Notes: a model not told the origin generated them from the letters alone. 64,000 nucleotides of DNA from Caulobacteraceae bacterium (GCA_036511515.1 DATCCB010000076.1:2482-66481), one strand, 5' to 3'. Positions 18,776 to 36,743 are shown, numbered from the stretch's first letter. Numbers and translations are program-made.

Positions 18776-19402
18776 TTAGTCAGGGATCGGTAACACGCGC
18801 AGGCTTCGGTTCAGCGTCTGGACGAAACGGGCATGGGTGGCGCCATCGTCGACGTCTTCGAGCGTGCGCAGCATCGCGACGCGCCGGCCGCGCAGGTTTG
18901 CGACGGTATCGGCAAGAGTAAGCGCGCTCGACCACCGCACACCGGCGAAGGCGCGCCTAGCCAAAGAGGCGCCTCTCAGCCCTATCAGCCAATAGCCGCC
19001 GTCCGCCGCCGGTCCGATGACCGCGTCGGCTGCGCCCAGGCAGTGGAAAGCCGCGGCGATATCCCTCGCCCGCACGCCTGGCGCATCGCCGCCGATAACC
19101 ACTACCGGGCCTTTCGGCAAACCGACGATCACCCTGGTGAGGCGGACGCCCAGCTCGCCCCGCCCCTGAGGCCTGCCGACCGCGCCCCTCAGCCAATCGC
19201 TGTGACCGGTTGGCGATGTCGCCACCCAGGTGCGCCAACGCCGGTCACGGTCGAGACGACGCAGAATTTCCTGAATGGCCAAACGCTGGAAACGGAGCGC
19301 GGCGAGATCCCCAAGCTCAGCGGCCAGCCGCCTTTTGCCCACTCCCCACGCTGGCCGACGGGTGAAGACCACCAGATGGCGGGCGCCTAGCGGTTGCTGC
19401 AA
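18776..19402 (-). CDS. DUF2064 / TIGR04282-type glycosyltransferase-like protein (rSAM/selenodomain-associated)
   Basis: P..G.GKRRLA, QGRGELG.RL, VIGGDAP, GPAADGGYWLIG, VRWS, LEDVDD; start uncertain (TTG 19402). Confidence 0.85.
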   Translation of the reverse strand: MQQPLGARHLVVFTRRPAWGVGKRRLAAELGDLAALRFQRLAIQEILRRLDRDRRWRTWVATSPTGHSDWLRGAVGRPQGRGELGVRLTRVIVGLPKGPVVVIGGDAPGVRARDIAAAFHCLGAADAVIGPAADGGYWLIGLRGASLARRAFAGVRWSSALTLADTVANLRGRRVAMLRTLEDVDDGATHARFVQTLNRSLRVLPIPD

Positions 19403-20421
19403 CTGGCCCCGCCAAGAACGCAGAAACGCGCACAATGAGGATGGTTGAGCGCAACTTCACCCATCGATTCGGAGAGCGGCCCGCCCATTTCGAACCCAGA
19501 ATCATACGGCGTCAGGGTGCAGGCGATGACCGCCGGACGCGCCGCCCCCTTTCGTTTCACCACCATGCGGCTCGTGGCGCACATCATCGATCGCGGCGAG
19601 ATACCCAGGATGTCCCAACAGGCCTGCGAAATCTCGACAACGTCGGCGCGCGCGTCCATTTCCGGAAACAGCACCAGGCGCGCCGGATCGTTTACGTCCA
19701 GGACGATGTTCAGATCGTCTAGCAGCGCGGCGTAGCCGCCGCGGGCGAACGCCTGCGTTTCCCCGGCGAGCTGGCGACCGGCGATGGCGATCGAAAACCC
19801 GTTGTCCGACAGCCACTGGAGGCCATTGATGGCGGCGCGCCAGGCGCCCGCCCCGCGCTCGGCGTCGTGGATCGCTGCAGTATAATGATCAAGGCTGACG
19901 CGAAGAGTGAGGGCAGCCCCATGCCTCGCATTCAGGGCCAGCAAGTCAGCCTCGAACCGGCGCATCGGTCTCATGGCGTTGGTCAGCACGAGCACCTGGC
20001 GACCGCCCTCCAAAGCCGCATTCAGCATGGCGACGATCTCGGGGTTCATGAACGGCTCGCCGCCGGTAAAACCGATCTGCCAGGTCGCAAGGCCGAGCGA
20101 GGCGATCTCGCCCAGATAGTCGCCAACCTCGTCCGCGGTCAGGTAGACCAGGGCGTCATTGCGTGGCGAGCTTTCGATGTAGCAACCCACGCAGGTGATG
20201 TTGCACAGCGTTCCGGTGTTGAACCACAGGGTCTCCAGGCCCTCCATGGCGACGCGGGCGCGAGCCGCGCCGGTGAGCGTAAACTCACGATCGCTGAACT
20301 TGCCCGCCTGTAGCGGAAGGAAGTCCTGCGGCTGGAAAGGCGAGACGGCCAAAAGGCTTCTCGGTGGCAAATCGCATGGGAACCGGCCCGCTGGCATAAC
20401 GCCAGCTTGCCGGGTCTCCAA
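19387..20421 (-). CDS. Radical SAM protein
   Basis: CxxxCxxC (CNITCVGC), FTGGEP, LTNA, C-terminal Cys cluster (CARFCVLGGASCS); start uncertain. Confidence 0.9.
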   Translation of the reverse strand: METRQAGVMPAGRFPCDLPPRSLLAVSPFQPQDFLPLQAGKFSDREFTLTGAARARVAMEGLETLWFNTGTLCNITCVGCYIESSPRNDALVYLTADEVGDYLGEIASLGLATWQIGFTGGEPFMNPEIVAMLNAALEGGRQVLVLTNAMRPMRRFEADLLALNARHGAALTLRVSLDHYTAAIHDAERGAGAWRAAINGLQWLSDNGFSIAIAGRQLAGETQAFARGGYAALLDDLNIVLDVNDPARLVLFPEMDARADVVEISQACWDILGISPRSMMCATSRMVVKRKGAARPAVIACTLTPYDSGFEMGGPLSESMGEVALNHPHCARFCVLGGASCSNR

Positions 20422-20833: not shown

Positions 20834-21700
20834 TCAAGGCTGGGGTCCGGTGACCACCAGCCGACGACCGCGCAGATGATCCAGAACCCCGCCGGCGAGA
20901 GTAAGGGTGACGAGATCGAACACCGCGACGCTGTGTCCCGGATGGGCAAGAGCCAGGGCGATCGCGTGGCTCTCCTCGTCGACATTGCGCTCGGACATCA
21001 CCTTGATCATCGGAAACGCGGCTAGGCATGCCTGGTCCACAGGGTTCACCGCCGTCGCCTTGACGACGCCTCTGGACCACGCTTGGGCCGTTGCGCGCAT
21101 GGACCCCGCGCCGGCTTCCACGCTTTGCAGTTGGCTGGCGAGGCAGGCGCTCTGACCGGCGGGGCCGAGCGCGCCGGCCGCGGCGATCATCGGGCCGGAG
21201 TCATAGGCCCCGGCCGGCGCCTCCCGCACGCCCGCGTCGTGCGCCAGCTTACGGACGCTTGCCTCTATCTCGCCGACCTTCAGGTCGTTGGCCTTGAGAA
21301 AGTCACCCTGAAGCAACGCGCCGGCGACGGTGGGTTTCCAGCCCGCATAGTGACCGGCGTCCTTGCCCAGGCTCATGCGGATGGTGACCAAGCGGCGGCG
21401 AAGGGGGGCCGCCAGACCGTCCTCCATCGGTGTCGGCGAGCGGAGCGCTCCGGCCGTCCCGATCAGGCCGCCGAGGGCGCGGAGACCGCCGCGAGCCCGC
21501 GGCGCGACGATAAGTTCGTTCGCGCCGTGCAGGCGCTGGCGGACGACCTGCTGATCCCAGACCATGCCGCGCGGCGTCACCGCCGGTACGCCCAGGATCC
21601 ACACTTCCGACCGATCCTGCGCGACCCGCCACCAGGACGGCGCCGCGGCGGCCGTCGTCGCGACCAGGACAAGCAGGGCCCCCAGGGCCGGCGCCCTCAC
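20834..21700 (-). CDS. TraB/GumN (Tiki-like) family secreted protein
   Basis: Signal peptide; P.WWRV...SEVWILG; C-terminal G.SVAV...L....GVLDHLR.R...V.GP; GTGA overlap with the PrsW stop. Confidence 0.75.
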   Translation of the reverse strand: MRAPALGALLVLVATTAAAAPSWWRVAQDRSEVWILGVPAVTPRGMVWDQQVVRQRLHGANELIVAPRARGGLRALGGLIGTAGALRSPTPMEDGLAAPLRRRLVTIRMSLGKDAGHYAGWKPTVAGALLQGDFLKANDLKVGEIEASVRKLAHDAGVREAPAGAYDSGPMIAAAGALGPAGQSACLASQLQSVEAGAGSMRATAQAWSRGVVKATAVNPVDQACLAAFPMIKVMSERNVDEESHAIALALAHPGHSVAVFDLVTLTLAGGVLDHLRGRRLVVTGPQP

Positions 21701-22722
21701 GCGGCGCGGGCCTGGCTCTCCAGGCGGTAGAGCTCCCAAAGTTCCTTGCGGCTGAATTGCAGATGGGGCCAGAGGGTGAGCAGGGCCGTGCGACCCATTT
21801 CCTTTTCAAGGGCGTGCAGCCGATGGAGCTTTTCGCGATCCCCCGCCACCGCCAGGATGATCTCGCCGCCCTCGCGCGCCAGCAGCATCTGTTCGGCGCG
21901 AATGACCAGCTCGGTGTGCAGCTGGAGATAGGCGAACATATCGTTGACCACCGCGGCGTCGAACCGCTTGGCGAGATCGGCGATGAACCGGCCAGCCTCC
22001 GTCTGGGCGAAGGTGCCGTTACGCATCTCCTCAAGAACGTGTTCGTGCGATTTGAAGTCGGAAAGCAGCCACTTGTCCGCCGAATGTTCGGATTTGGCGA
22101 AGATCAGCAGCAGGGTGAGCGGCACGACCAGCAGCGTCACCATCATGGTCATGACCGGCGCCCCGGGAAAATGGTTGAACGCCGCGTGCAGGACGATGGC
22201 CGCCGCCAGGCCGGGCAGATAGAGACTGGGATTGAGCTTGGCGTGGCGCTCGGTCAGCGATTGGGCAAGGACCCCGAAGATCGCCGTCGCGCCGCCGTGC
22301 ATAACCGCGGTGCCAAAACCGCGGACAAGCCACACGCCGATGTTCGCCTGCGGAAACAGGTGCAGGTAATAGACGTTTTCCAAAAGGGCAAACCCGGCGC
22401 CGATCGAAAATCCGACGATGGCGGCATCGACCATGAACCCCAGGCGGTTGCGGCTGAACAGATAGATCATCAACGAGGCTTTCAGCACCTCCTCGACAAT
22501 GGGAGCGACGTATCGGCTGTAGTCGGTGAAGCCGATCGGCAGTCCGTCGAGCACGTGGCCGTTGATCACATAGCTTGCCGCCGCCAGCGCAGCCCCAGCG
22601 CCGAGCGCAATCAGGACCATGGAAAAGCTGACCAGCTTGAACGCATCGAGCCGGTGGAACACGACCAGGAAAACCAGCACGGGCGCCAAGGCGACCGGGG
22701 CCTTGAGGAAAAAGTCCGTCAC
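21697..22722 (-). CDS. PrsW family glutamic-type intramembrane protease
   Basis: Multi-TM; APIVEEVLK, GFALLEN..Y, H (VMHGG), LHAAFN; extra soluble C-terminal domain. Confidence 0.9.
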   Translation of the reverse strand: MTDFFLKAPVALAPVLVFLVVFHRLDAFKLVSFSMVLIALGAGAALAAASYVINGHVLDGLPIGFTDYSRYVAPIVEEVLKASLMIYLFSRNRLGFMVDAAIVGFSIGAGFALLENVYYLHLFPQANIGVWLVRGFGTAVMHGGATAIFGVLAQSLTERHAKLNPSLYLPGLAAAIVLHAAFNHFPGAPVMTMMVTLLVVPLTLLLIFAKSEHSADKWLLSDFKSHEHVLEEMRNGTFAQTEAGRFIADLAKRFDAAVVNDMFAYLQLHTELVIRAEQMLLAREGGEIILAVAGDREKLHRLHALEKEMGRTALLTLWPHLQFSRKELWELYRLESQARAA

Positions 22723-22750
22723 CTTGGGCTGCCTGAGTTGGTCGGACGCA

Positions 22751-25700
22751 TCATAGGATTTTCAGCGACAACAGGAATTCGCCGCTTCGCCGCCGATCCT
22801 GACCAAATCCCTCGGCGTAGCCAACGGAAAAGGTCATCGGCAGCCGCAGGGCGACGGTGAAGTTCCAGTCGAGTTGCCCGCCGGCCGTTCCCAGCACATG
22901 CGCGCCGCCGGCGACCGGATCGACAGCCAGCAAACCCGCGAACAGGGCTGGCCGCGCCGAACTGAGGAACAGGCTGGGGACACCGACCTCGCTGAACCGG
23001 ACCGGCGGCAGGTTGAGTTCCAGCAGCGACTTGAAAAACCGCCTGGCGCTGATCGCGTCGATGCCAAACCCGGGAAAGCTGTCCCATTCGCGATAGTGTT
23101 TAACCTCGCCGTCATCGACATAGTTGTTTTCGAACGAGCCGAGATAGAACTGGCTCAGGGGATCGGTGGAATCTCCCCCGGCGATGCCGACGGCGTTGTA
23201 GAGCCAGACCGACGAGTGCGGCCATGGAAGTCCGACGCCATAGTCGAATCCGGCGTGAGCCTGCGGAAAGTTTTCGCCGTGGGAATAGTCGTCGGTGACC
23301 ACGACATTCCATCGCATGCCCCGCTCGTAGTCGACCGAGCCCAGGGACCGGTCAGTGTTGGAGTAGCGGAGCGCCGCGTTTACTTCTGTGATCGTGCCGT
23401 CCTCGCTGGCCAATATGTTCTGCGCTCCCGGCAAGGTGTCCAGGCCCGTGTAGAAGGCCGCGCTCGACGTGAAATCGAGCTGCCGTGGCGGATCGTAGAT
23501 AAAGGAATTCTTGTATCCGACGATGAAGGCGTCGCCCTTGCGGCTTCGATCGATCGGACCGAACAGGTCGTAGAAATTGGCGTCGTTGTGCCAGTAGCGA
23601 TAGCTCCAGTGCAGGTCGTGAAACTCGAGATCGGCATGCAACCGCTCGCCAGACGGCAGCGTGGAGCCCGGCGTGTAGCTCAAGGTGGCTAGAAACTGGT
23701 TGAACTGCATGGGATCTTCGAAGATCGCGTGCACCCCAACCGCCGGATGGGTCTTGTAGCCTTCGACGACTGGATAGATGGCGGCCAGTTTGATTTCGTC
23801 GAGCGGGACGTAGTGATCACGTCGGGTAATCATAGAATCCAGCGGCACGCCGGCCGGCGAACCAACCGCCCAGGTCTTGACGATCGGATGCTGCTCGGCG
23901 ACCTGCGCGCCCAGGAACTTGATTGCGCCCAGATCATCGAGCGGCTTGGGGTCGATCAGTTCGGGCACGAAGCCCTGACCGGTGTACTCGAAGACGATCA
24001 GCGAGCCGTCGGCGCGCGGGATGGGTCTAAAGAAGCCCGTGGATGCGTTGGTCAGCGCCTCGATCTTGTTTGTGGCGATCTCGAACCGGTAGATATTTGA
24101 AACGCCCGTGTAATAGGAACTGCCGTAGAGGTAGCGCCCGTCTGGCGAAAATACGAAACCCTCCGGCATGGCCGAGCCTTGCCTGAACTGGGCGACCGGC
24201 GTGGGTTCCTCATCATTGGAAAGTTCGGCGGTCCTGAACACGCGCAGCCACTGATCGCCATTGATCTCTCCCACCGACGCCGAAAGCAGCTGTCCGTCGG
24301 GCGAAACGTCGAGATCGAAGGGAATCTCGCCATAGGGAAACGTATGGACCTGAGACCAGGAGGTATAGGGCGGCGGGATGTGGACCAGGGTTACGAGGCC
24401 ATTGAGATGGCGCAGGCCCCACAAGGACTTGTCCTGCCGATCATAGACAATATCGCCGATGCGGCCGCCCTTGATCAATTCTCGGGTTTTGCCCGTTACT
24501 GGATTGATCTCCATCAGATTCCGATAGGCGTAGTTGTTGGTCGTGTACCAGGCGCGATTGTCATCGGGATCGTAGGCCAGTGAGGTCACACGATAGAGCA
24601 TCGCTCCCTTGATGTCGGCCAGCTTGCGATCGATGCCGGTTCGCAGCGAAAGCACGCCGACATGGGCGATGATCCCGGTTGGCCTGAAGGCGCCGATGAG
24701 ACTATCGGTTTTCGGATCGTAGAAGGCGCGCGACACCGAGCCTAGCGCCTGGGGAGCAAGGCGGTGACCGGGAGTCAGGGGAGAGCTGGCCACCGACTTG
24801 AGATTGTCATGCTGGAAGCCGTGTTCCCAGACGATCCAGTCAGCCCAGACCGAGTCAAGTGACTTGCCGAACACCCGCTTGAACTGCACCGAATAGTAGC
24901 CGGCGCTGCCTTCGTCCCGGCGCAGCCACGCGATGACCTTTTCCGGCGAATAGGTGAGCGCCAGATAGCTGAAGAAACGGGTGCCATAGAGGTATTCGTT
25001 GACGCCAACCTGGAAATCGATCGAGGTGCCTTCCGACTCGAGGCCAAGAGGCGAAAAGAAGCGGGCATTGTCCCGAACCATCGCCCGGAAGACCATCTCG
25101 TCGTAGCCGCCCTGGGCGCGCCCGAAACCGCCGGCCATCCATGTTTCCATGAACACCGCGCTGCCTTCCAGGTACCAGCGCGGCACGTTGACACGCGGAG
25201 TCGCCAGATAGTTGTAGAGGATCGACTCGGGGTGGTCTTCCAACGGCATAGGCTTGCCATGAAAGATTCGCCGCCAGAGCGCGTCGTTCTTATTCCACAC
25301 ATCCATCGTCGCTACGTGGACGAGTTCGTGATTCATCAGGGCGTAAAACCGATCGCCGGCGCTGAATGTTTCAAACGTCTGGCTGAGCGGTCCGATATCG
25401 ATGAGCAAGGCGTTGTTGGGCGACGCTCTCGCGGCGGCATTTCCGTAGTCGCCGAAATCCTTGAGCAGGACCGTCGTCTTGTCCCAGGGCTTCCAGCCGA
25501 ACGTGCGCTTCTGAAAGGCGAAGGAGTTCTCGAAACTGCGCGCTATGTGGGGCGTGAGATAGGTTTCGGCCGGATCGAAGTAGAGCAGCTGGAGATCGTT
25601 CGTCTCCAGGCGGCTGAGGTCGATGGCGGGCGGAGCATGGGCTGGCCTGGTGGAGCCGGTCGAGGGTCCGTTGGGTGGTTGGGTCGGCTCCCCTCTCTGG

Positions 25701-25804
25701 GTCGGCGCGGGCGGCAGCGTCTGGGTCGGCGCCTCGATCTGAGCCACGGCATGCCCGGCGATAAGCGTCAGGCAAATCGTCAGGCATGCAAACCCTGTGC
25801 GCAT
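22751..25804 (-). CDS. Secreted/outer-membrane protein: HEXXH metallopeptidase-like domain + TolB-like propeller + predicted C-terminal beta-barrel
   Basis: Signal peptide, Pro-rich linker, HELVH...PRWYLEGSAV (gluzincin), SPDG repeats, alternating aromatic/hydrophobic strands at the C-terminus. Confidence 0.75.
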   Translation of the reverse strand: MRTGFACLTICLTLIAGHAVAQIEAPTQTLPPAPTQRGEPTQPPNGPSTGSTRPAHAPPAIDLSRLETNDLQLLYFDPAETYLTPHIARSFENSFAFQKRTFGWKPWDKTTVLLKDFGDYGNAAARASPNNALLIDIGPLSQTFETFSAGDRFYALMNHELVHVATMDVWNKNDALWRRIFHGKPMPLEDHPESILYNYLATPRVNVPRWYLEGSAVFMETWMAGGFGRAQGGYDEMVFRAMVRDNARFFSPLGLESEGTSIDFQVGVNEYLYGTRFFSYLALTYSPEKVIAWLRRDEGSAGYYSVQFKRVFGKSLDSVWADWIVWEHGFQHDNLKSVASSPLTPGHRLAPQALGSVSRAFYDPKTDSLIGAFRPTGIIAHVGVLSLRTGIDRKLADIKGAMLYRVTSLAYDPDDNRAWYTTNNYAYRNLMEINPVTGKTRELIKGGRIGDIVYDRQDKSLWGLRHLNGLVTLVHIPPPYTSWSQVHTFPYGEIPFDLDVSPDGQLLSASVGEINGDQWLRVFRTAELSNDEEPTPVAQFRQGSAMPEGFVFSPDGRYLYGSSYYTGVSNIYRFEIATNKIEALTNASTGFFRPIPRADGSLIVFEYTGQGFVPELIDPKPLDDLGAIKFLGAQVAEQHPIVKTWAVGSPAGVPLDSMITRRDHYVPLDEIKLAAIYPVVEGYKTHPAVGVHAIFEDPMQFNQFLATLSYTPGSTLPSGERLHADLEFHDLHWSYRYWHNDANFYDLFGPIDRSRKGDAFIVGYKNSFIYDPPRQLDFTSSAAFYTGLDTLPGAQNILASEDGTITEVNAALRYSNTDRSLGSVDYERGMRWNVVVTDDYSHGENFPQAHAGFDYGVGLPWPHSSVWLYNAVGIAGGDSTDPLSQFYLGSFENNYVDDGEVKHYREWDSFPGFGIDAISARRFFKSLLELNLPPVRFSEVGVPSLFLSSARPALFAGLLAVDPVAGGAHVLGTAGGQLDWNFTVALRLPMTFSVGYAEGFGQDRRRSGEFLLSLKIL

Positions 25805-25919
25805 GGCCGCCCCCCCAAACTACGCGGGCCCCCTAGGCCGGCTCGCCTGCCCGCGACGCTCTCAAACGCCGATCGCGCGGCCAAGGTGCCGCGCGATCAT
25901 GCCGCATGACAAGGGCTAA

Positions 25920-27746
25920 TTACTCAGAGCGCATGGCCTTGGCGAATCCGGCGCTGCTCATCATCGCTCCGAATGACGGGCTGGAGGCCAGGGCCATGAA
26001 CGCCGGTTGATTGGCGAGAGCCGCGAAGGCCTGCGAGTTGCGGGCCATTGCGGCAAAAGCCTGGGGATTGCTGGCCATGGCCGCGAAGGCTTGTGGCTGT
26101 TGCGCCATCGCCGCGAAGGCCTGTGGGTACTGGGCCATGGCGGCGAAAGCCTGGGAATTCATCCCCTGGCTAGCCATTCCCTGACTGGCCATGCTGGCCG
26201 CCGCAGCCTGGGCCTGGAAGGCCTCCGCGCTGCGAGCCATGGACGCGAACGCCTGGGAGTTGCGCGCCATCGCCGCAAAGGCTTGCGAATTGGCCGCCAT
26301 GGCTTGGAACGCCTGGGCGTTGGACGCCATGGCCGCGAAAGCCTGGGCATTGCTGGCCAAGGCCTGGAAGGCTTTGGCGTTGCTGGCCATGGCGGCGAAA
26401 GCCTGCGGATCGCGGGCCAAGGCCGACATGGCGGCCGAGTCGCGCGCCATCGCCGCAAAGGCCTGAGGATGGCTGGCCATGGCCGAAAAAGCCTGGGGCG
26501 TCTGGGCCGCGACCGAAAATGCTTTCGCGTCGCTGGCGAAGGCGCCGAAGGCCTGCGGATTGGCGGCCATGGCGGCGAAGGCCTGAGGATACCGGGCCAT
26601 GGCCGCGAACGCCTGGGGATGACTGGCCATCGCCGCGAAGGCCTGCGGTTGCTGGGCCATGGCCGCGAAAGCCTGAGAGTTGGCCGCCATCGCCGCAAAC
26701 GCCTGCGAGTCGAAATGAGACCCCATGCCTTCGCCTCTGGCCTGAGCGTCGAACGCCTGGGAATTCATCCGCGAGCCAAGGCCTTCGCCCCTTGCCTGGG
26801 CGTCGAAGGCCTCTGCGCTTCTGGCCATGGAAGCGAATGCCTGGGGTTCGCGCGCCATGGCCGCGAAGGCCTGGGAGTTGGCCGCCATGGCGGCGAAAGC
26901 CTGGGAGTTGGCGGCCATCGCCGCGAAAGCCTGAGAATCTCTCGCCAAGGCGGCGAAGGCCTGGGCGTTGTTGGCCATCGCCGCGAACGCCTGGGGATCA
27001 CTGGCCAAGGCGGACATGGCCTTGGAGTCGCTCGCCATGGCCGCGAAAGCCTGCGAGTTCGAATGCATCGCGGCGAACGACTGCGGGTTCGCGGCCGCGG
27101 CGGCGAAGGCCTTGGCGTTGTTGGCGAATGCGCCGAACGCCTGGGGATTTGCGGCCATGGCTGCGAATGCCTGAGGGTGGCTGGCCATGGCTGCGAAGGC
27201 CTGCGGATGACTGGCCATGGCGGCGAAAGCCTGTGGCTGGCTGGCCATGGCCGCGAACGCCTTGGAGTTCGAAGCCATGGCGGCGAACGCCTTGGCGTTC
27301 ATGCCTTCCGCGGCGCTCGACATCGAACGGAAGTTCTGAGCGCTGTGAGCCATCGCCGCGAACGCCTGCGGATTACTGGCTAGGGCCGAAAAGGCCTGGG
27401 GCGCCTGGGCCATGGCGGCCAGGGCCTGGGGGTTCTGAGCCAGAGCCATGAACCCGGGATCCGAAGCCATGGCCCGGAAGGATGGGTTCTTGATCATCAT
27501 TTCAAAGGCGTCGGTCTGCATCAGCATCGGCACGGTGTTGTCGGCGAGAACGACGTCCGAATTCGAGATCTGGCTGGCCCGGTAGCGGTCGGCGGCGACG
27601 ATGGTGCCTGCCGTGTGGGCGCCGTTGGGCGGGTTCATCTGGCCGACGAAGAATACGGCGCCGGCAATCACGACCAGGCTGGCGCCGGCAATCCAGAACT
27701 TGCCGTTGCTGGAAATTCTCGATGACATTTTCCGCTCCAATTCCAT
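25920..27746 (-). CDS. Membrane-anchored Ala/Met-rich decapeptide tandem-repeat protein
   Basis: N-terminal TM (KFWIAGASLVVIAGAVFFVG); ~45 copies of [P/S/A]QAFAAMA[S/A/R][N/H/D]; synonymous codon variation between copies. Confidence 0.85.
   Translation of the reverse strand: MELERKMSSRISSNGKFWIAGASLVVIAGAVFFVGQMNPPNGAHTAGTIVAADRYRASQISNSDVVLADNTVPMLMQTDAFEMMIKNPSFRAMASDPGFMALAQNPQALAAMAQAPQAFSALASNPQAFAAMAHSAQNFRSMSSAAEGMNAKAFAAMASNSKAFAAMASQPQAFAAMASHPQAFAAMASHPQAFAAMAANPQAFGAFANNAKAFAAAAANPQSFAAMHSNSQAFAAMASDSKAMSALASDPQAFAAMANNAQAFAALARDSQAFAAMAANSQAFAAMAANSQAFAAMAREPQAFASMARSAEAFDAQARGEGLGSRMNSQAFDAQARGEGMGSHFDSQAFAAMAANSQAFAAMAQQPQAFAAMASHPQAFAAMARYPQAFAAMAANPQAFGAFASDAKAFSVAAQTPQAFSAMASHPQAFAAMARDSAAMSALARDPQAFAAMASNAKAFQALASNAQAFAAMASNAQAFQAMAANSQAFAAMARNSQAFASMARSAEAFQAQAAAASMASQGMASQGMNSQAFAAMAQYPQAFAAMAQQPQAFAAMASNPQAFAAMARNSQAFAALANQPAFMALASSPSFGAMMSSAGFAKAMRSE
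25990..27440. repeat. ~30-bp imperfect coding tandem repeat array
   Basis: Recurrent GCCATGGCCGCGAAGGCCTG-type units at 30-nt spacing. Confidence 0.9.
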
Positions 27747-27916
27747 GAGGTGCGCCTAGATGTGGCCATGATCGCCGCAAAGTCAACACAATCTGCCGAT
27801 TATCCCGAAAACCTAGATCACGCCTCGCGAACGCAGCGCTTCGAGGTGATTTGCTGGACGCCATTTACCGTCAGGCATGTTAGCAAAGCCAGCGGGCGAA
27901 CGTCTGCTGCGATTTC

Positions 27917-29632
27917 TTGGGGGCGCGTGGGGTGGCAAGTTCAGCGATCGCGTTGATGGTGAGCCTGCTCGCCGCTGGCCCCCCCGCGGCGGGCGATGCG
28001 CCATTGTCAAATGTCGATCCAACGGCGGTGTTGAGGCCTTCGCCGACCGAATCGGCCCCTATCGAGATCCCGCAGCTCACGGCCAAGCCGCCGACCGAAG
28101 ACCTGACGCCCCGCTTTACCTTGAACTCCGTCGCGTTCGATGACGCTCACGCGGTTTCCGAGGCCGCCCTCGAACCGGCGTGGGCGTCTTACCGAAACAG
28201 GGCCGTGAGCCTGGCCGACCTCAGCGTCATCGCCATGCGAGCGGAAGCGATCTATGCCAAACACGGATTTCCATTCGTCGCGGTGGTGGTCAATCCTCAG
28301 CAGGTGCGGGGCGGCGATGTCCGCTTCAAAGTCATCGAGGGACGAATCGCCGATCTGACCGTGCTGGGAACCGACCCTGTCGGTCGGCGCCAGGCGACCG
28401 CGGCGTTCGAGCCGCTCGTGGGCCGCATGCCGCTGAGCGCCGGCGATGTCGAGGGCGCATACGAGCACGCCAAGGCCATCCCCGGCCTCGCGGTCGCCGG
28501 CGCTCTGCGCCGCGGCGATGTCCGCGGCGGCATCGACCTGGTTGTTCAGGCCAAACGCGAAGAGTGGCGCACCTACGCCAACGTCAACAATCTCTATCCG
28601 GACGCCCTGGGCCCCTGGGGCGCTTTGGTCGGCGTCGATCATTTCGGCGGCTCGGCCTATGGCGATCAGACCTCCGCGCAGTTCTACCACTCGCTGGCCG
28701 GCGGTCCGCAGACCGTCGTTCGGCTGAGCCACGCACAAGGTCTCGATCCCGAGGGCACGACCCTCTCGGTGATGGCTCTGGGCGCCTGGGCCGAGCCGGG
28801 CCGCGCGGTCGCGCCGCTGCAGCTGGCCACCAATGTCTTCGACGCCAGGGTGGCGCTCTCCCAGCCGATCCTCGAACGCCTAGCTTATTCACTCAGCGCC
28901 GCGGCGGCGTTCGAGATCGACAACCAGAAGACCGAGGTGTTCTCCCGGATCGGTCTGACCGACGACAAGCTGCGCATCGTCAGTCTTTCGGCGGCGGGCG
29001 AGCGACGATTCGCCGACGGCGCCCGCGTGGCCTTCACCGCCGAGATTCGCCAGGGTCTTGGAATCCTCGGCGCCAGCCATCGGGGCGACCCTCTGCTCTC
29101 AAGGCTGGGCGCCAATCCCGACGCGACGGTCGGCAGATTCAGCCTGGAAGGTCAGAGCCCCGCCTATCATAAGGTCACCGTCGCCCTGCGCACCGAAGCC
29201 CAGGTCGCCAGCGCGCCTCTGACCACGCCTGAACAATACGCCGTCGGCAACCTATCCATCGGCCGCGGCTATCAGCCGGGAGCAAATTTCGGCGACGACG
29301 TGGTGGCCGCCAGCGGCGAGGTGCGACTTGGCCCCTATCGCGTGCTACAGAAGCTGCTGCTGTCGCCCTTCGCATTCTATGACAGTGTCCATCTTTGGAC
29401 GCACACGCCGGGCGCGGCGATGAACAGGACTCTTTCGTCGACCGGAGTTGGCGTGCGAATCGATACCCCAAACCAGGCGCACATCGACCTGACATACGCG
29501 GCGCCGCTCGACCCGCCGCTTGGCCTGGGTGAACACACGCCCCACGGAGTGTTGCTGGTCAATGTGACATTCGGATTGAACGGGGTGCTCAGCGCCATCA
29601 ATCACCGCCTCCCCGGGGGAGGTTTCAAATGA
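27917..29632 (+). CDS. ShlB/FhaC/HecB family two-partner secretion transporter (TpsB)
   Basis: POTRA motif Y.KHGFPFV...PQ...G.VRF.VIEG; barrel loop motif IGRGY; AFYD; start uncertain. Confidence 0.9.
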   Translation: MGARGVASSAIALMVSLLAAGPPAAGDAPLSNVDPTAVLRPSPTESAPIEIPQLTAKPPTEDLTPRFTLNSVAFDDAHAVSEAALEPAWASYRNRAVSLADLSVIAMRAEAIYAKHGFPFVAVVVNPQQVRGGDVRFKVIEGRIADLTVLGTDPVGRRQATAAFEPLVGRMPLSAGDVEGAYEHAKAIPGLAVAGALRRGDVRGGIDLVVQAKREEWRTYANVNNLYPDALGPWGALVGVDHFGGSAYGDQTSAQFYHSLAGGPQTVVRLSHAQGLDPEGTTLSVMALGAWAEPGRAVAPLQLATNVFDARVALSQPILERLAYSLSAAAAFEIDNQKTEVFSRIGLTDDKLRIVSLSAAGERRFADGARVAFTAEIRQGLGILGASHRGDPLLSRLGANPDATVGRFSLEGQSPAYHKVTVALRTEAQVASAPLTTPEQYAVGNLSIGRGYQPGANFGDDVVAASGEVRLGPYRVLQKLLLSPFAFYDSVHLWTHTPGAAMNRTLSSTGVGVRIDTPNQAHIDLTYAAPLDPPLGLGEHTPHGVLLVNVTFGLNGVLSAINHRLPGGGFK

Positions 29633-32600
29633 TCCGTGGCGCCCGCCCGTGGCGACAGATGTTTCTCGGCGCTGGGTTGTCGGTCGCGGCGCTCGTCGCT
29701 CCATTGGCGGGCGTGGCGGCCCCGGCCCTTCCCCAGGGGCCGACGATCGCCGGCTCGACGGGCGCGCCGGGGGCCACGTTCGACACCAGCGTCGCCAACA
29801 CCCTGAACGTCAATCAAAGCACTTCGCGGGTGGTCATCGATTGGCGATCGTTCGACATCGGCGCCGGCGACACGGTCAATTTCCATCAGGCTGCCCAATC
29901 CTGGGTCGCCTTCAATCGCGTGACTGCCGATCCGACGACCGGGCTAAGCCCGCTGTCGACGATCGCCGGTACTGTGAACGCCCAGGGCGGCGTATGGCTG
30001 TTTTCCACGGGGGGGATACTTTTCGGGCCCACGGCCGTGGTCAATGTCGGCTCCTTCGTGGGCATTACCGGGCCCCTTGGAAACAACAACGATGTCAGTC
30101 AGCTGCTCAATCCAGACACCAATGGTGTGACAACGGTGGCGATCGAGCCCGCGGTCGCCGCGGGAATCGAAAATATTACCGTGCAGAGCGGCGCCCAGAT
30201 CAATGCGGCCAGCGGGTTCGTCGCGCTGCAGGCTGAGACGCTGGTTCAGGACGGCGCTGTCACCGCTTTCGACGGGGTCGAATACCTGGTTTCGCAAGCC
30301 GGACAGCTCCAGTTCACCACCGACGTGGCGGGCCAGCAGCTGCTTCCCGCCTCGGTAACGCCGGTCGTGGGGGTCGATCGGCCCAGCTTCACCCAAGCGG
30401 GGAGTTCGTCCGGCGCGTGGGTAGGCATCGATGCGCCTGGAGGCGCCTTGCAGGCCGGCTATCACACGCTGATCAACGTCGGCGGGGAAATCCAGGCCAG
30501 CGGCATCAAGCCCGGCACGACCGATGAAGGCATCGTCTTTCTGGTCGGAGGCGCCCAGGGACCGGCGACCCCGGGCGCCACCGACTCGAGCATCGGCGTC
30601 GATGCATCCAGCGCGACTCTCACCGCGACGAACGGGCTCCTGATATTGACCGACAGCGCCAGATTGGGATCGACGATCCTCGGCGGGCCGCTGGATGTAG
30701 AGACCTATGGCGATATCGCCATCGTCGCGCCGGTCACGGTCGGCGCGGGCGCACAGCTCAACAGCGCCCGCGGAGCGGTGGCCATCGACGCCAACCTGAC
30801 TGCAAATCAGGATATTGGCGCGGCAGGGCAGACCATAAGCGTGGGGCCAAACGTGACGGTGCGGTCGGACTCGCTGGGCGCGGGCAACGGCGGGATCGTT
30901 CTGGGCGCCGTGGGGGATGTGGTCGCAGATCCGACCTCCCTCTTGATTGCCGGCATCCTCGCCGCGTCGCCGACGGACAACGTCACCGTCAATGCCGGCC
31001 TTGGCCCCCAGGGCGGGAACCTGAGCGTCGGATCGGTCTCCGGCGTCAACCTGTTCATTCACGCCCAGTCCAGAGCGGTCCCAGGAGAAGGCGCGCTGAC
31101 GCTGGCGGGAACGATCGTTGGAACCGCCTCGATCCTGGCCTACGTCGATGACGTCACCGATGCGAACAATCCAACCGGGCCCCTGCAGATCCTGGGCGCC
31201 GTCTCGAGCAGCGGCTTCATCGACATCGAGAATCTCGGGACGGGCGCCATGGTCGTCGGTCCCGGCGCATCGGTGCAGAGTTCTGGCGATCAGGTCTTCC
31301 TCACCGACGGGGGCGACACCACTTTCGAGAGCGGCGCGCGGCTGACCGGCGTGTCATTCTTCGACCACACGGCCGGGGCCCTGACCATCGCCGCCGGCGC
31401 CAGCGTGACGACGACCGGGACCTCCCGCGCGCCCAGCGCGCCCTTGATCCCTTTCGGCGGCGAATTCCAGCGGTCGTCCGGCCTCAATCTGGCAGCCGGG
31501 ACCCTGAACATCGCCGGGTCGGTGACCGCAGGAACGCCGGCCGCGCCGGACGACATCTACATCGAGGTTCTTGGCGCCGGGCCGGCGACCATTGGCGGAT
31601 CGGGGGGCGGGGCCGGGTTTGACCTGACCAATGCCAGTTTCAGCCACCTCAGCGCCCGCGACGTGATCGTCATGGGTGGCCCCGGCGAGGCGGAAGGCCC
31701 AGGCGCGGACCTGACGGTCGATGATCTGAGTCTCGATTCCGGCAAAATCTCGGCTCTTTGGCTTGGAACCGCCAGCGCCAATTCGATCACCGTCTCCGGC
31801 GCGGTCACCCAGACTGGGAGCGGCCCCGTCGATGTCCAGATCGGATTCGCCCGCCAAGGGGCGGGCGCCGCTGGCGGCCTGGATGGGTTCATTCCCGGAC
31901 AGATCGACATCACCGGCGCCCTGGGGTCATCGTCCGCCCCTCTGGGCGGGGTCGATCTGATCGCTCGCGGCGATATTCTGGTCGGCGTCCCGACTTTCGT
32001 CGCCGCCGCACAGGCGGACGCCAATTTCGATGCGGTCAAGCAATCGAGCGCCTTTGCCGCGAGCCAGGGCCAGGTGTTCCTGGCCGCTGGAGCACTGCAG
32101 CTGAGCGCCCAGGGCCGGATCATCCAACAGAACACCGCGCCCTCCCTGCTCTCCTTCGCGGGCCTCGACATCGGCGCGCCGACGTCGGGCCGTCCACTGA
32201 TCGCGGTCCCCGCCGCATTGGAAGGCCAATTGATCGGCGGCGTCTGGACGGCCGATTTCTCCGCTGGGCCGAGCCGTATCGACCTTTTCGGCGCATTGAC
32301 CACAGCGGGAGGCCGCATCGTCGACGATCTCTCCGCCGCCCAACTGCCCGATCTGCTCGCCCCCCCGATTGCGACGCAGGTCGCCTATCGCATCAACACC
32401 TGCGAGTTCGGCCAGGTCTGCTCGCCGCCGACAACGGCGATCCAGTTCGAGCCCCCACCCGATTCGGAGGCGGCCGCCCAGGCGGCGGCCCAGAGCGGAT
32501 TCATCTTCGGCGGCGTGCGGCCGACCAATGTGTTTTCGGCCTTGACCCAGGCGTCGACGCAACAGGACGACGATCGCCTCGGCGACGCCAATCCGTTGAC

Positions 32601-32682
32601 GGAGGCCGGCAATGGCGATCTGGCCGCGGGCGGAAGCGCCGGTTGCACGCCGCGCATCGATCCAGACAGGAAATGCCAGTGA
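29629..32682 (+). CDS. Filamentous-haemagglutinin-like TpsA passenger
   Basis: Signal peptide; LPQG, Q.TSRVVIDWRSFDIGAG..VNF.Q, NRV, I.G.VNA.G.VWL TPS domain; G/A/T/S-rich beta-helix. Confidence 0.88.
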   Translation: MIRGARPWRQMFLGAGLSVAALVAPLAGVAAPALPQGPTIAGSTGAPGATFDTSVANTLNVNQSTSRVVIDWRSFDIGAGDTVNFHQAAQSWVAFNRVTADPTTGLSPLSTIAGTVNAQGGVWLFSTGGILFGPTAVVNVGSFVGITGPLGNNNDVSQLLNPDTNGVTTVAIEPAVAAGIENITVQSGAQINAASGFVALQAETLVQDGAVTAFDGVEYLVSQAGQLQFTTDVAGQQLLPASVTPVVGVDRPSFTQAGSSSGAWVGIDAPGGALQAGYHTLINVGGEIQASGIKPGTTDEGIVFLVGGAQGPATPGATDSSIGVDASSATLTATNGLLILTDSARLGSTILGGPLDVETYGDIAIVAPVTVGAGAQLNSARGAVAIDANLTANQDIGAAGQTISVGPNVTVRSDSLGAGNGGIVLGAVGDVVADPTSLLIAGILAASPTDNVTVNAGLGPQGGNLSVGSVSGVNLFIHAQSRAVPGEGALTLAGTIVGTASILAYVDDVTDANNPTGPLQILGAVSSSGFIDIENLGTGAMVVGPGASVQSSGDQVFLTDGGDTTFESGARLTGVSFFDHTAGALTIAAGASVTTTGTSRAPSAPLIPFGGEFQRSSGLNLAAGTLNIAGSVTAGTPAAPDDIYIEVLGAGPATIGGSGGGAGFDLTNASFSHLSARDVIVMGGPGEAEGPGADLTVDDLSLDSGKISALWLGTASANSITVSGAVTQTGSGPVDVQIGFARQGAGAAGGLDGFIPGQIDITGALGSSSAPLGGVDLIARGDILVGVPTFVAAAQADANFDAVKQSSAFAASQGQVFLAAGALQLSAQGRIIQQNTAPSLLSFAGLDIGAPTSGRPLIAVPAALEGQLIGGVWTADFSAGPSRIDLFGALTTAGGRIVDDLSAAQLPDLLAPPIATQVAYRINTCEFGQVCSPPTTAIQFEPPPDSEAAAQAAAQSGFIFGGVRPTNVFSALTQASTQQDDDRLGDANPLTEAGNGDLAAGGSAGCTPRIDPDRKCQ

Positions 32683-35600
32683 GCCTGCGCCCGTTTTGGC
32701 CCCCTCTGGCGTCGTTGGTGGCGATGCTAGGCATCGTCGCCGCGCCGCAAGCTTCCCTCGCGGCCCAAAGCGGAGACTTCGGCCTCGGGTCGAACGCGGA
32801 AAAGCAGGCCTGTCGCGCGACCGAACGGTTCGATGCACCCAGGGGCGCGCGCGCCGTCGACATCTATTGCGGACAGTGGGAGCGGCCATCTGGCCATCTG
32901 ACCCTGGCCCCGGCAAGCCGCCAGCAGAGCGCGATGGCCGCTCTGGCTGAAGGCTGCCAGGGTGACCAGACCGCTCTGCCTTCAAAGGAGTTCACCTCGC
33001 TTCGCCAGGTCGCCTGCGCGTCCAACGTGGAAGGCGCGCCGCCTGGCCCACGGCGTTTTGGCCTGATCGCCATGCGCGGCAGCGTGATTCTCACCGGATC
33101 GGCCTACCCGGCCGACTGGGCTCCGCTGGTCGAGGCGGCGCGGGTGCTGAGCGGCGCCACGGCCCGGGTCGCCGCGGCGGAAACCGACACAGCTTCGACC
33201 CCCGGACTGCGCGAAATCGACGCCGTCTACCCCGAGGGGGCCCCCGGTCAGGGGGCTGAGGTCAACTACGAACTGCTGCGGCGGCGCGCTTTCGAACACA
33301 ATGTGATCTGGAGCTTCGCCAGTTCCGAACAGGACTTTGAGGCGTTATTGCGCGCGCACGACGCGATCAGTCCCGAAGACGTTCAGGGCCGCGCCGAAAT
33401 CCTGGCCGAGATCGGCTTGAACCTTTCCGATGCCGGGCGTTTCAGCGAGGCTGCCGACTCCCTCGATCGCGCGGAGGCGGAGGCGAAGTCGGAGAAAGGC
33501 GTCTTGCTGGCCAGCAAGATCGAAAACTACCGCGCGCTGGACCAGCTCAACCAGAGACGGTACGCGCGCGCCCTGGCTTTGGCCCTCGCGGCGAACCAGC
33601 TGCGCGCGACCAGTGGCGGCGAGGGCGCCGGGGCGGCCGTCTCGGCTACCGACTCCCGCGCCATCGATCGGGCGACGCCGGCGGCTCAGCGCAATCTTCT
33701 CATTCAGTTCGACGAGGCGACGCCGCAGGAAAAGCTGGCGGTGTTATCCGCCCAGGGCTTTTACATTGCCGGGGTCGCCGCGCGCGCGCTGGGCGACCCG
33801 CAAGCTGCGCACTACCTCGATCAGGCGTCCGGGGAATTGTCCCAGGCGCAGTCGCCGCCGGCGTGGCTGTCGAGCGCCATCGCCAACGAGGAGGCCGAGA
33901 TTCGGCTCGCCAACGGCGACTATGCCGGCGCCGCGGCGCGGGCCCGCGCAGGGTTGATCCAGGTCCGGCTGATCGCCCCCCAGACGCGCAGTGAGGCCCA
34001 CCTGCTGCTCACCTTTTCGCGCGCGCAAGCGGGCTTGGGCCGGACAGACGAGGCGTTGGCCAGCGGGCGCGAAGCGATCCGAATCTTCGCCCACCAGCTC
34101 GAAGAACCTGGCTTGCCCGCGGACGTGGCTAGCGGCCAGCTCGACCTGTTGCTCAGCCAATGGGCTCGCGCGGCTGATCCGAAACTCGCGGCAGAGTATT
34201 TCGAGACGCTGGCGCTGGTGTGGGACGGGGCCGCGGCCCGATCAGCCTCTCAGCTGGCGGCCCGGCTCGCCCTGCAGGGGGTCGGCGCCCAGGCCCGAGC
34301 CTATCAGGACGCCGAGCGCGCCTACCGCGCCGCGCTCGCAACCCGCCAGAGACTGGCGGTCGATCCCAACGCCACCCCCGCTTCGATCGACCAGGCCGAG
34401 GCCCAGATCAAGGACACCGTCCAGCGCTATGCGACGGCGGAGAGCAACCTTCGCGCCGCGGCGCCCGGCTATCTGGAACTTCTCAATCCCACTGCCTCTA
34501 CCTCCGACCTCCAGGGAGTGCTTGCGGAAAAGGAGGGCTACCTGCGCATAGTCATCGCCGAAGGCGGCGGCTACGGAGCCCTGGTCACACGCGCGGGCGT
34601 GCACCCGTTTCGCATCGCCATGACCGCGCGGCAGATAGAAGAGGCCGCCGGCAAGCTCCGCGCGAGCACCGCCTTCCATGGTCGGACACTGCCCAGTTAC
34701 GACATCGCCGACGCGGCCACGCTCTATGCTGGCCTGATCGGGCCGATCGCGGCGGATATCAATGGACTCGACACCATCGACATCGATGTTTCTGGGGCCT
34801 TGGCCTCCGTGCCCTTCGCCGCCCTGGTGGAAAGCGCGCCCCAAGGCGAGGCGGCGCGCAAGGTCGCAGAGGACGAGGATTACAGCGACGTCGACTGGCT
34901 GGCGCGCAGGGTGGCCGTGACAAACGCCCTGGGACCCGCCTCCCTGGTGCGCTTCCGCAAGAGCCAGGCGACGCGCGCCCCGGCCGCCCATGAACTGGCC
35001 GCCTTTGGCGATTTCCGGCCCGATCCGGACGCCGCCGCCGCCCGGATCGCCGCCGATCACGGACTTTCAGCGGGTTGCCAGAAAGCAATCGCCCACGCAC
35101 TGGCCACGCTCGGCGCACTGCCGGACACCGCCGACGAGGCCAGCGATGTCGCCAAGGCGTTCGACGGCAAGAGCCGGGTGCGTCTTGGCGCTGAGTTCAC
35201 CGACGTCGATTTTCTGCAGGATCCCTGGGTCGGCCAGGCCGATGTGATCCTGCTGGCCACTCACGGGGTGCTTGGCCTGTCATCCTGCTTCGCCGAACCG
35301 GCGCTGCTCACCTCGCTTGGCTCGACCGGCGATGGCTTGATCGAGGCCTCGCGCGTTCTCGACCGCAAGCTCAACGCGCGGCTGGTGATTCTCTCGGCGT
35401 GTGACACGGCCGGTGGCGGTGTCGCCGACGGCGGGGAGGCCCTGAGCGGACTGGCGCGGGGCTTTCTCTACGCTGGCGCCGCAGCGGTGCTGGCCACCGA
35501 GTGGAAGGTCGATTCGGCCACATCGGCGGCCGAGGTCGGCGCCTTCCTGGCAGCCGCCGAAAAACCCGATCAGTCTTTGTCCCTGGCCTTCGCCGCCGCC

Positions 35601-35753
35601 CAGCGCAGCGTCTTCGCCTCGGCGGAGACCGGCCATCCCTTCTACTGGGCGGCCTTCATTCTGGTCGGCAACGGCCAAGCCTCGATCAGTCCGGCAAAGA
35701 CCACCGTCGCCGCCGGTGCGCCGCCGGCCTTGTCGATGGCTCAGGCGCCGTAG
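32679..35753 (+). CDS. Secreted TPR-CHAT (caspase-like) protease
   Basis: Signal peptide after a GTG/ATG overlapping the TpsA stop; helical TPR region; catalytic LATHG and LSACDT; GEALSGLARGF..AGA; HPFYWAAF. Confidence 0.9.
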   Translation: MSLRPFWPPLASLVAMLGIVAAPQASLAAQSGDFGLGSNAEKQACRATERFDAPRGARAVDIYCGQWERPSGHLTLAPASRQQSAMAALAEGCQGDQTALPSKEFTSLRQVACASNVEGAPPGPRRFGLIAMRGSVILTGSAYPADWAPLVEAARVLSGATARVAAAETDTASTPGLREIDAVYPEGAPGQGAEVNYELLRRRAFEHNVIWSFASSEQDFEALLRAHDAISPEDVQGRAEILAEIGLNLSDAGRFSEAADSLDRAEAEAKSEKGVLLASKIENYRALDQLNQRRYARALALALAANQLRATSGGEGAGAAVSATDSRAIDRATPAAQRNLLIQFDEATPQEKLAVLSAQGFYIAGVAARALGDPQAAHYLDQASGELSQAQSPPAWLSSAIANEEAEIRLANGDYAGAAARARAGLIQVRLIAPQTRSEAHLLLTFSRAQAGLGRTDEALASGREAIRIFAHQLEEPGLPADVASGQLDLLLSQWARAADPKLAAEYFETLALVWDGAAARSASQLAARLALQGVGAQARAYQDAERAYRAALATRQRLAVDPNATPASIDQAEAQIKDTVQRYATAESNLRAAAPGYLELLNPTASTSDLQGVLAEKEGYLRIVIAEGGGYGALVTRAGVHPFRIAMTARQIEEAAGKLRASTAFHGRTLPSYDIADAATLYAGLIGPIAADINGLDTIDIDVSGALASVPFAALVESAPQGEAARKVAEDEDYSDVDWLARRVAVTNALGPASLVRFRKSQATRAPAAHELAAFGDFRPDPDAAAARIAADHGLSAGCQKAIAHALATLGALPDTADEASDVAKAFDGKSRVRLGAEFTDVDFLQDPWVGQADVILLATHGVLGLSSCFAEPALLTSLGSTGDGLIEASRVLDRKLNARLVILSACDTAGGGVADGGEALSGLARGFLYAGAAAVLATEWKVDSATSAAEVGAFLAAAEKPDQSLSLAFAAAQRSVFASAETGHPFYWAAFILVGNGQASISPAKTTVAAGAPPALSMAQAP

Positions 35754-36613
35754 CTCTCGATCAGCTTAAAGACGCTTTCGCGATCCAGGCCAGTGGTGGG
35801 CGCATCGTTGAGCACCTGCTCGGCCTGGAGCGACCAGGTGTCCGAGTTGTTTCGCGCCAGATCGGCGGCGCGGGCGGCCGCCTGGACCTCACGATCGGCA
35901 ATACCGTCGTAGTCCGGCGACAGCGGCGGCCTGTCGGCCACCACGGTCACCTTGGCTTCCACCTTGGCGCCGCTACTGTCGGCGGCCTCGAGCACATAGA
36001 CGCCCGGGGCCAGATTCAGCCTGGTGAGGACGATGTCGTTGCCGGCCCCGGCGGCCTGGCTGAGCACCGATCCGGCCCCATCGAGAAGCTGCACCTTGTA
36101 GGCGCCGACGCCGCCGTCGATGCGCACCAGAAGATTCTGAGATCCGGCGGCAAGGTTCTGATGGCCCGACGCCAGGCTGGTCAGGGCGAAGCCGAGCGCC
36201 GGGCCGGGGCCCCTCAGCCTCACGTCCCACGGCTGGCGTTTCATGTCCGGCAGCAGGTGATCGCTGACGTTACGATAGGCGTTGCCTGCCAGGGTCGGTG
36301 GGCCCTTCCTGGCGACAACGGTGTAGGACTCACCGGCCTGGACCTTTACCGTCGCCGCGCCATCGATCGACAACGTCGCCGCGGCGCCATTCTGTGCGTG
36401 GATGGTGTCGGATTCGCAGAGTACCTCGAGCACCCGCGGCCGCGCGACCGGCGCGCGCTGGCCGGCCGAGCCCACGCGAAGGATGACGATATCCTGAGGC
36501 TTGCCGACAATACGCGTGATCACGCCCGCGCCTGCGCAGGCCGAGGCGGTTCCAGCCATGGCCGCAAGGGCCAGGCTCACGACCCCGGCCGTGCCCCACT
36601 TGTTGATGCTCAT
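35741..36613 (-). CDS. Secreted hypothetical protein (possible FecR-like N-terminus / Ig-like middle)
   Basis: Signal peptide (MSINKWGTAGVVSLALAAMAGTASA); coherent codon usage; overlaps the CHAT 3' end by 13 nt. Confidence 0.7.
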   Translation of the reverse strand: MSINKWGTAGVVSLALAAMAGTASACAGAGVITRIVGKPQDIVILRVGSAGQRAPVARPRVLEVLCESDTIHAQNGAAATLSIDGAATVKVQAGESYTVVARKGPPTLAGNAYRNVSDHLLPDMKRQPWDVRLRGPGPALGFALTSLASGHQNLAAGSQNLLVRIDGGVGAYKVQLLDGAGSVLSQAAGAGNDIVLTRLNLAPGVYVLEAADSSGAKVEAKVTVVADRPPLSPDYDGIADREVQAAARAADLARNNSDTWSLQAEQVLNDAPTTGLDRESVFKLIESYGA

Positions 36614-36743
36614 CGGTGCATGTCCTTGAAAACCCGCCGGCCCAGGACCGGACTTTCCTGCCGCAATCGTAACACAGTTCGTCGGCCACACCTAAAAACG
36701 TTGCGCGCGCCTGACCGCGGGCGGAGCTCTCACCTCAACCCAG

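Follow-up and report, generated by a model that had tools for sequence, protein, structure and literature searches.

In a 64,000-nt stretch of a Caulobacteraceae bacterium genome (GCA_036511515.1, DATCCB010000076.1:2482-66481; hereafter the window), we find what is, by sequence comparison, a real, conserved and apparently unpublished three-gene envelope system that no known family fits as a whole. It comprises a membrane-anchored repeat protein (REP), a zinc peptidase/propeller/barrel protein (PEPBAR) and a PrsW-family intramembrane protease. The function that we propose, at about even chances, is that PrsW frees REP near a conserved tag and that PEPBAR captures, trims and exports it. An original prediction made from the window alone had described four co-directional genes, with a PrsW gene 28 nt 3' of the second and a TraB/GumN gene joined to it by a GTGA overlap. 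All four minus-strand open reading frames (ORFs) are present, with gaps of 115 nt between REP and PEPBAR and 28 nt between PEPBAR and PrsW and the overlap at 21700-21697. The view that the repeat protein is the likely substrate of a conserved, apparently undescribed envelope system is supported, and the core system, as delimited by gene order across loci, is REP, PEPBAR and PrsW, not four genes.

Profiles were run over 105 loci, which are akin and partly redundant, so the counts given here are not independent trials. PrsW followed PEPBAR in 46/46 loci with at least 300 nt downstream. PEPBAR stood beside REP in 16/16 genome loci and in 59/80 metagenome loci, the latter being the best 80 of 348 relatives in the REP-homologue set, and the remaining 21 metagenome contigs end inside REP or within ~150 nt of its end. 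Co-occurrence across genomes, on which the original prediction had been made to depend, thus holds for REP, PEPBAR and PrsW. PEPBAR was detected in 11 GTDB genome loci labelled Caulobacteraceae, Sphingomonadales, Micropepsaceae and Marinicaulis, plus one 2.2-kb contig labelled Acidimicrobiales, and a profile search recovered 777 clusters of PEPBAR-type proteins at E 1e-30. The system was found in Caulobacteraceae and Sphingomonas; strong matches occurred in 13/200 family genomes, 1/400 class genomes and 0/400 phylum genomes, which makes its distribution patchy. Plasmids gave one weak partial match, and the RNA search listed no holder. Distant peptidase-propeller-barrel proteins (L123-L132, ORFs of ~950-990 aa) were also seen in ten genomes of a single family of the phylum, with no REP, PrsW or extracytoplasmic function (ECF) sigma match within 1.5 kb.

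The fourth gene fared differently. The original prediction had counted it among three dedicated proteases, and this part did not stand: none of the 39 loci with at least 500 nt downstream has TraB after PrsW. In the relative L001, which is 93-94% identical across the core, PrsW is followed directly by the next small gene without TraB; 16 close TraB homologues in the genus have no PrsW or PEPBAR within 1.5 kb; and in genome G079 the core and TraB lie on separate contigs. Compared with the canonical paralogue of this genome, GSVH has become GVPA and GMGH has become DLVT, so that both conserved histidines are lost, which we take to be the catalytic ones of the TIKI/TraB set. TIKI enzymes require a catalytic set of two His and two Glu (PMC6254334). 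On this comparison the TraB/GumN gene is a bystander, adjacent in this genome only. Histidine-less TraB/GumN proteins with signal peptides (L134-L149) are common in the genus (30/60 genomes with any match, 16 at E <1e-30), and this commonness makes a conserved non-catalytic role likely.

The start of REP at 27728 is favoured by a GGAG ribosome site and by L001, which is 93% identical and starts there. The predicted N-terminal transmembrane segment with a long QAFAAMA ectodomain was borne out by one strongly hydrophobic segment (Kyte-Doolittle 2.2, with nothing above 1.0 beyond residue 40) and 22 exact QAFAAMA copies. The N-terminus is short and basic, and the short form has only ~10 cytoplasmic residues. 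The repeat has a period of 10 residues (identity 0.52 at lag 10), is 37% Ala and contains an internal duplication of 196 aa, across which position-specific decad variants recur in register. The structural model (mean predicted local distance difference test (pLDDT) 72.4, predicted template modelling score 0.44) is a chain of 47 short helices, mostly one per decad, with pLDDT above 90 in the module cores; solved and viral structures gave no fold match to it (best Z 5.6), which does not by itself make the fold new. The conserved tag lies 9-13 residues past the membrane segment and is likely unfolded, with pLDDT 42-61 in the lone model. Its between-clade identity (0.54) is about that of the peptidase (0.58), while REP length ranges over 258-602 aa. 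In the metagenome set the search pattern itself accounts for part of the tag's invariance; the 15 rows retrieved through PEPBAR are free of that bias. Two relatives, L011 (2908-3717) and L164 (11210-12589), keep the membrane segment and tag on a Phe-free tail rich in Ala, Ser, Asn and His. Conservation in REP concentrates beside the inner membrane, not at the far end.

PEPBAR begins with a signal peptide, and the original description of an exported protein with a HELVH...E motif, a propeller and a barrel-like C-terminus agrees with the PD40 match, the AlphaFold model and the fold search. The HEXXH with a downstream Glu is that of clan MA gluzincins; its H, E and H and the third ligand E are kept in 72, 74, 73 and 75 of 76 homologues. 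Peptidase_MA_2-like clusters match the peptidase (score 0.95), and sub-threshold Pfam matches occur in 2/18 homologues. The model of the whole protein has a mean pLDDT of 56.8, and Foldseek with it returned propellers only. The barrel was modelled with the 16 strands (by our count) and long loop 6 of Omp85 proteins, the loop being 46 residues between strands 11 and 12, and its best fold match was BamA (8xnb, Z 15.3, root-mean-square deviation 5.5, 266 residues aligned), with CdiB, Sam50 and TamA close behind. The modelled fold suggests that the barrel is Omp85-like and a candidate member of that superfamily. Three homologues differ in layout: the distant P0069 has PrsW and PEPBAR in one reading frame, by fusion or a lost stop, and P0078 and P0083 carry an N-terminal extension of 260-275 residues, with a weak AMIN match in P0083.

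The PrsW protein scored 62.6 bits against PF13367 (cut-off 23.5) and 25.6 against the NCBIfam equivalog, below its cut-off of 225. E77, E78, K81, F111, E115, H142, H179 and N183 are invariant in 31/31 sequences, in agreement with the family motifs EExxK, FxxxE, H and HxxxD/N, and no solved relative of PrsW was found.

The related loci fall into three configurations. In type A the order is a GAF-PP2C-kinase gene, STAS, ECF sigma, REP with an N-terminal anti-sigma-like domain, PEPBAR and PrsW; type B is type A minus the sigma gene and the anti-sigma domain, with PP2C and STAS kept; type C, found here and in all alphaproteobacterial genome loci, is the bare core. In 88 loci the sequence extends 400 nt or more upstream of REP: the ECF sigma and the anti-sigma domain occur together in 57 of them and are both absent from 31, and neither is ever found singly. 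The ECF gene matches Sigma70_r2/r4, and the Pfam matches of the anti-sigma domain (zf-HC2, DUF4880) are below cut-off. The domain is in frame with REP in 56/57 loci, with a linker of widely varying length; L108 (348-1079 and 1185-2945) is the exception, where either a natural split or a sequence error puts the domain out of frame with REP. The PEPBAR tree, made with FastTree, rooted on P0069 and given no topology test, places C next to a clade that unites A and B (support 1.0). Type B falls within A and makes up no single group, which points to the sigma layer having been lost more than once. Comparison of the loci shows this layer disappearing as a whole from a core that persists.

These related loci have a SigW/RsiW-type arrangement, an ECF gene coupled to a single-pass protein with an anti-sigma domain (57 loci); this genome does not, with an in-frame stop just upstream of REP. 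As the original prediction stated, the window has no ECF sigma gene: the six Sigma70_r2 matches of the genome all lie on contigs other than that of the locus. Profiles from the related loci found in this genome (86.65% complete) no anti-sigma domain, cognate sigma, STAS or PP2C, and only distant ECFs (best 68 bits). Five type C genomes that are 99-100% complete likewise had no close relative of the operon's ECF (33% identity at best, where operon ECFs share 58-87%) and nothing that matched the anti-sigma domain; the GAF-PP2C-kinase protein was nowhere matched in full, the PP2C matches being partial and weak.

The C-terminal domain of PrsW varies with these configurations. Within A/B its identity is 0.75 against 0.64 for the membrane part, and within C it is 0.40 against 0.53; when rows were matched at a membrane-part identity of 0.6 (15 rows each), the domain stood at 0.74 in A/B and 0.45 in C. 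In these alignments, conservation of the PrsW cytoplasmic domain is relaxed where the STAS/PP2C and sigma genes are missing. Of the 15 rows from A/B, only 2 belong to type B, so that this count does not tell an effect of sigma on the domain from one of STAS. Type B keeps PP2C and STAS without sigma, which leaves the PrsW domain as their obvious remaining cytoplasmic target.

Promoter-like sites follow the same division. A scan with an E. coli-type consensus found no promoter. The TTGACT...GCCACATC upstream of REP is close to the Caulobacter RpoD consensus TTGaCgS / GCtANAWC (PMC8144410), and the bare core here is predicted to be expressed from this housekeeping promoter. KTGAC lies upstream of the REP start in 17/17 B, 14/15 C and 4/56 A loci (not de-duplicated). 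In type A, another motif, MAAC-N16-YRTA, lies in the linker that runs from the anti-sigma domain to an internal Met, mostly followed by a purine-rich ribosome site. It was present inside the anti-sigma gene in 31/33 de-duplicated A loci (~0.35 expected from shuffles) and in 0/11 B and 0/15 C loci. This second ECF-type promoter and ribosome site would also make the short REP, the form present in this genome. All three configurations thus provide short REP with a promoter-like site of its own, and the long form is an optional extension. Another copy of the motif lies ~27-36 nt before the ECF gene in 27/28 loci with upstream sequence. In L043:4452-4479 and 26 similar loci only a few bases separate the motif from the start of the ECF coding region, and the sigma transcript may accordingly be leaderless.

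These observations lead to the following model. PrsW would cut REP off the inner membrane at the conserved tag; PEPBAR would then capture the freed protein, its zinc peptidase would trim it and its barrel would pass it out. REP would be the product and the anti-sigma form a reporter copy, so that the cut that releases the cargo would also switch the genes on. With less weight, we infer that the STAS/PP2C module acts on the cytoplasmic domain of PrsW. Since the core persists without sigma control, REP is probably the product, and a system kept intact without sigma is unlikely to exist only to release sigma. A tag at a fixed distance, a freely varying body, and an obligate PrsW and barrel read best as release, capture and export, a reading that we hold at about even chances. 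Outside the cell, released REP could form a surface coat or filament or act as a decoy, all of them candidates. A bolder version is possible and held only tentatively: a new Gram-negative secretion route in which PrsW would be a private signal peptidase, the peptidase-propeller would replace POTRA as the receptor through which an Omp85 barrel takes up cargo, and the helical repeat protein would be exported to build a surface structure. In one clade, nested promoters in a single gene would then yield both the cargo and, as its longer in-frame isoform, the anti-sigma factor, and the STAS/PP2C partner switch would act on the protease instead of on a sigma factor.

Several points weigh against release and export by this route. 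The metagenome set was fetched with anti-sigma-bearing (type A) queries and the tag pattern, and its proportions are biased. The MAAC-N16-YRTA pattern was derived from the same loci in which it was counted, so that its independent support is the copy before the ECF gene. The PEPBAR tree is arbitrarily rooted, and sigma control may or may not have preceded the alphaproteobacterial form. The peptidase part of PEPBAR was modelled at pLDDT below 50; AlgE and OccD2 lie within ~1 Z of BamA in the barrel fold search, as do CdiB and Sam50; PEPBAR has no Pfam Omp85 (PF01103) match, and no significant profile match to the single BamA or TamA sequences of this genome. A protease active at the barrel might do no more than degrade REP. 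Finally, the tag pattern, [VLTA]-x-G↓T, also fits signal peptidase I, the site-1 protease for RsiV.

This last point leads to the reading that signal peptidase I, not PrsW, frees REP after the invariant Gly and that PrsW clears the membrane stub or another substrate, which we consider quite improbable. The residue two before the Gly is small or aliphatic in 29/30 rows (V13, T6, A5, L4, G1, S1), prolines come right after the hydrophobic stretch at fixed spacing, and there is precedent in signal peptidases cutting RsiV and RsiP at site 1 (PMC10202637). However, conservation is strong just past the site, every locus with room has PrsW (46/46) and the unit encodes no other substrate. The residue at the putative cleavage position is Gly in 30/30 rows and never Ala, unlike in ordinary signal peptides. 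That PEPBAR chops REP into peptide signals or antimicrobials, the repeats being precursors, is very improbable: many near-identical decads and a predicted active peptidase at a pore would suit it, but the decads were modelled as a confident folded array with variants in register across the duplication, no conserved spacer separates them and the unit has no modifying enzyme.

REP might be released and stay periplasmic, binding hydrophobic peptides or lipids in the manner of STI1, for instance, with the barrel only anchoring a peptidase that turns over REP or its clients; we hold this to be fairly unlikely. The short amphipathic helices of REP have a Phe/Met face, and weak STI1/XPC-binding/UBQLN1 matches appear in REP, its homologues and look-alike Atlas clusters (10-33% of members); they are mostly below the Pfam cut-offs, and no STI1 structure came up in the fold searches. 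A part in periplasmic quality control has been suggested for Omp85 proteins that bear proteases, by Heinz and Lithgow (PMC4104836), yet a periplasmic REP leaves the obligate translocase-type barrel unexplained, and the tails that follow the tag in L011 and L164 lack the Phe repeat. It is unlikely that the system serves trans-envelope signalling only, with PEPBAR sensing or cutting first, PrsW next, sigma freed, and the sigma-less copies being relics or having another output. The 57 loci with ECF, anti-sigma domain, membrane segment, PrsW and an autoregulatory promoter follow the SigW/RsiW/PrsW plan, and their PP2C, kinase and STAS genes look like a signalling layer. Against this, 31 loci that lack sigma and anti-sigma domain have all core genes, the active sites being intact and a sigma70-type site being present, five near-complete genomes show no partner in trans, short REP has only ~10 residues in the cytoplasm, and sigma-bearing loci too keep a separate promoter and ribosome site for it. 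The periplasm-spanning sensor offered by the original prediction as an alternative is likewise disfavoured for this genome, which has neither anti-sigma domain nor cognate sigma and in which conservation lies beside the inner membrane.

If release and export by PrsW and PEPBAR are right, they would give a first function to peptidase-propeller Omp85 proteins, which are catalogued but unstudied, and would show a PrsW with, for the first time, a dedicated task in a Gram-negative envelope other than cutting anti-sigma factors. Two regulatory designs would be unusual: an anti-sigma factor made as an isoform of the very protein that it regulates, and a partner switch aimed at a protease; the sigma-less form is a natural experiment that separates product from regulation. 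The features of the locus are collected below.

Features of the REP-PEPBAR-PrsW locus and the adjacent TraB/GumN gene in the window
Feature	Coordinates	Strand	Details
Predicted housekeeping (RpoD-type) promoter	27759..27786	-	TTGACT 27786-27781; GCCACATC 27766-27759; same letters in L001
REP (repeat protein)	27746-25920	-	608 aa ORF; likelier start ATG 27728, giving 25920..27728, 602 aa
REP hydrophobic segment, residues 11-29	27642..27698	-	Signal anchor or long signal peptide; from hydropathy
REP tag, residues 41-76	27501..27608	-	GT[IV]xPAxRY...Q...DVxLxD...Q; alignment of 30; candidate cleavage and recognition site
REP repeat region	25923..27515	-	Decads [NDHQ][PSA]QAFAA[ML]A[SAR]; four modules, two of them 17 decads each from the 196-aa duplication
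PEPBAR (zinc peptidase/propeller/barrel)	25804-22751	-	1017 aa
PEPBAR peptidase domain, ~residues 60-340	24785..25627	-	MA-clan zinc peptidase
HELVH, residues 159-163	25330-25316	-	
WYLEG, residues 210-214	25177-25163	-	
TolB/WD40-like beta-propeller, ~residues 340-625	23930..24787	-	Pfam PD40; weak TolB matches; fold matches Z 13-15
Predicted outer-membrane beta-barrel, ~residues 670-1017	22754..23797	-	From the model; 16 long strands
PrsW-family intramembrane protease	22722-21697	-	341 aa; Pfam PrsW E 5e-17
PrsW C-terminal soluble domain, residues 222-328	21739..22059	-	In no Pfam family; candidate regulatory docking site
TraB/PrgY/GumN gene	20834..21700	-	288 aa product; Pfam E 1e-18

The neighbourhood holds further gene groups. 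Divergent from the core, 27917-36691 is a two-partner-secretion-like cluster (a ShlB/POTRA barrel, a TPS-domain protein, a CHAT protease and a 316-aa gene), with paralogous clusters on contigs C52 and C75 and an additional CHAT gene on C26. In L001 a CHAT remnant alone is left beside REP, in L041 a CHAT gene adjoins REP, and in L164 similar-looking genes lie near the core. On the other side, 18776-20421 contains a radical SAM gene and a DUF2064/TIGR04282-like glycosyltransferase that resemble arsenosugar biosynthesis genes, below family cut-offs. Farther away, 40116-48119 encodes a 2667-aa predicted surface protein with many ~95-residue repeats carrying GVLANDTD and a Gly/Asn-rich region before them.

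Our literature search found no description of a REP-PEPBAR-PrsW unit, although subscription papers and unseen supplements could hold one, and the passages returned from the ECF reclassification supplement (PMC7826278) gave no group with matching context. The comparison with known systems is therefore one of parts. The original prediction had pointed to Fap amyloid export. Fap unites a repeat protein, a C39 peptidase and an outer-membrane barrel (FapC, FapD and FapF) in one operon. This likeness of a repeat protein, a peptidase and a barrel stands, and the analogy is otherwise weak: REP has short alpha-helical decads, the modelled barrel is Omp85-like with 16 strands, the peptidase is HEXXH and not C39, and PrsW is present. 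The beta-forming, Gln/Asn-rich repeats of Fap and curli are not seen in REP (Ala 37%, helices predicted); later conversion to beta structure would be compatible with the model. Two-partner secretion (TpsB/TpsA, type Vb) and PlpD (type Vd) share with our system an Omp85-like barrel beside a protein with a conserved N-terminus and a variable repeat body. In contrast to two-partner secretion, the Pfam scan, which covered 11 genes around the locus, found no POTRA on PEPBAR and no TPS on REP, and it found both at the neighbours at 27917 and 29629; the repeats are helical and not beta-helical, the barrel carries a peptidase and a propeller, and there is a dedicated inner-membrane protease.

Zhang et al. 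(2012) proposed PrsW-dependent export of polymorphic toxins, mainly in Gram-positive bacteria, with PrsW fused to a toxin domain (PMC3482391). PrsW as a proposed releasing or processing peptidase in export is common to both, whereas PrsW is a separate gene here and no toxin domain or immunity gene was seen. PEPBAR itself resembles the WD40-like Omp85 subfamily that Heinz and Lithgow (2014) catalogued without function (PMC4104836), which has a TolB-like propeller in the place of POTRA before an Omp85-like barrel. Compared by description, the available text on that subfamily does not mention an HEXXH peptidase, partner genes or a function, and its 'Metallo' group has PF00149. In the SigW-RsiW-PrsW-RasP cascade, PrsW of B. 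subtilis cuts the anti-sigma RsiW at site 1 (PMC4602095, PMC10202637). Our system shares with it the intact motifs of PrsW and, in the related loci, an ECF, a single-pass protein with an N-terminal anti-sigma-like domain and an autoregulatory AAC-N16-YGTA motif. It differs in that the locus studied here has no anti-sigma domain and no cognate ECF, that the presumed substrate has a repeat body of 260-600 residues and its own short form, that an outer-membrane peptidase-barrel is obligate, and that PrsW bears an extra C-terminal domain and HxxxN in place of HxxxD.

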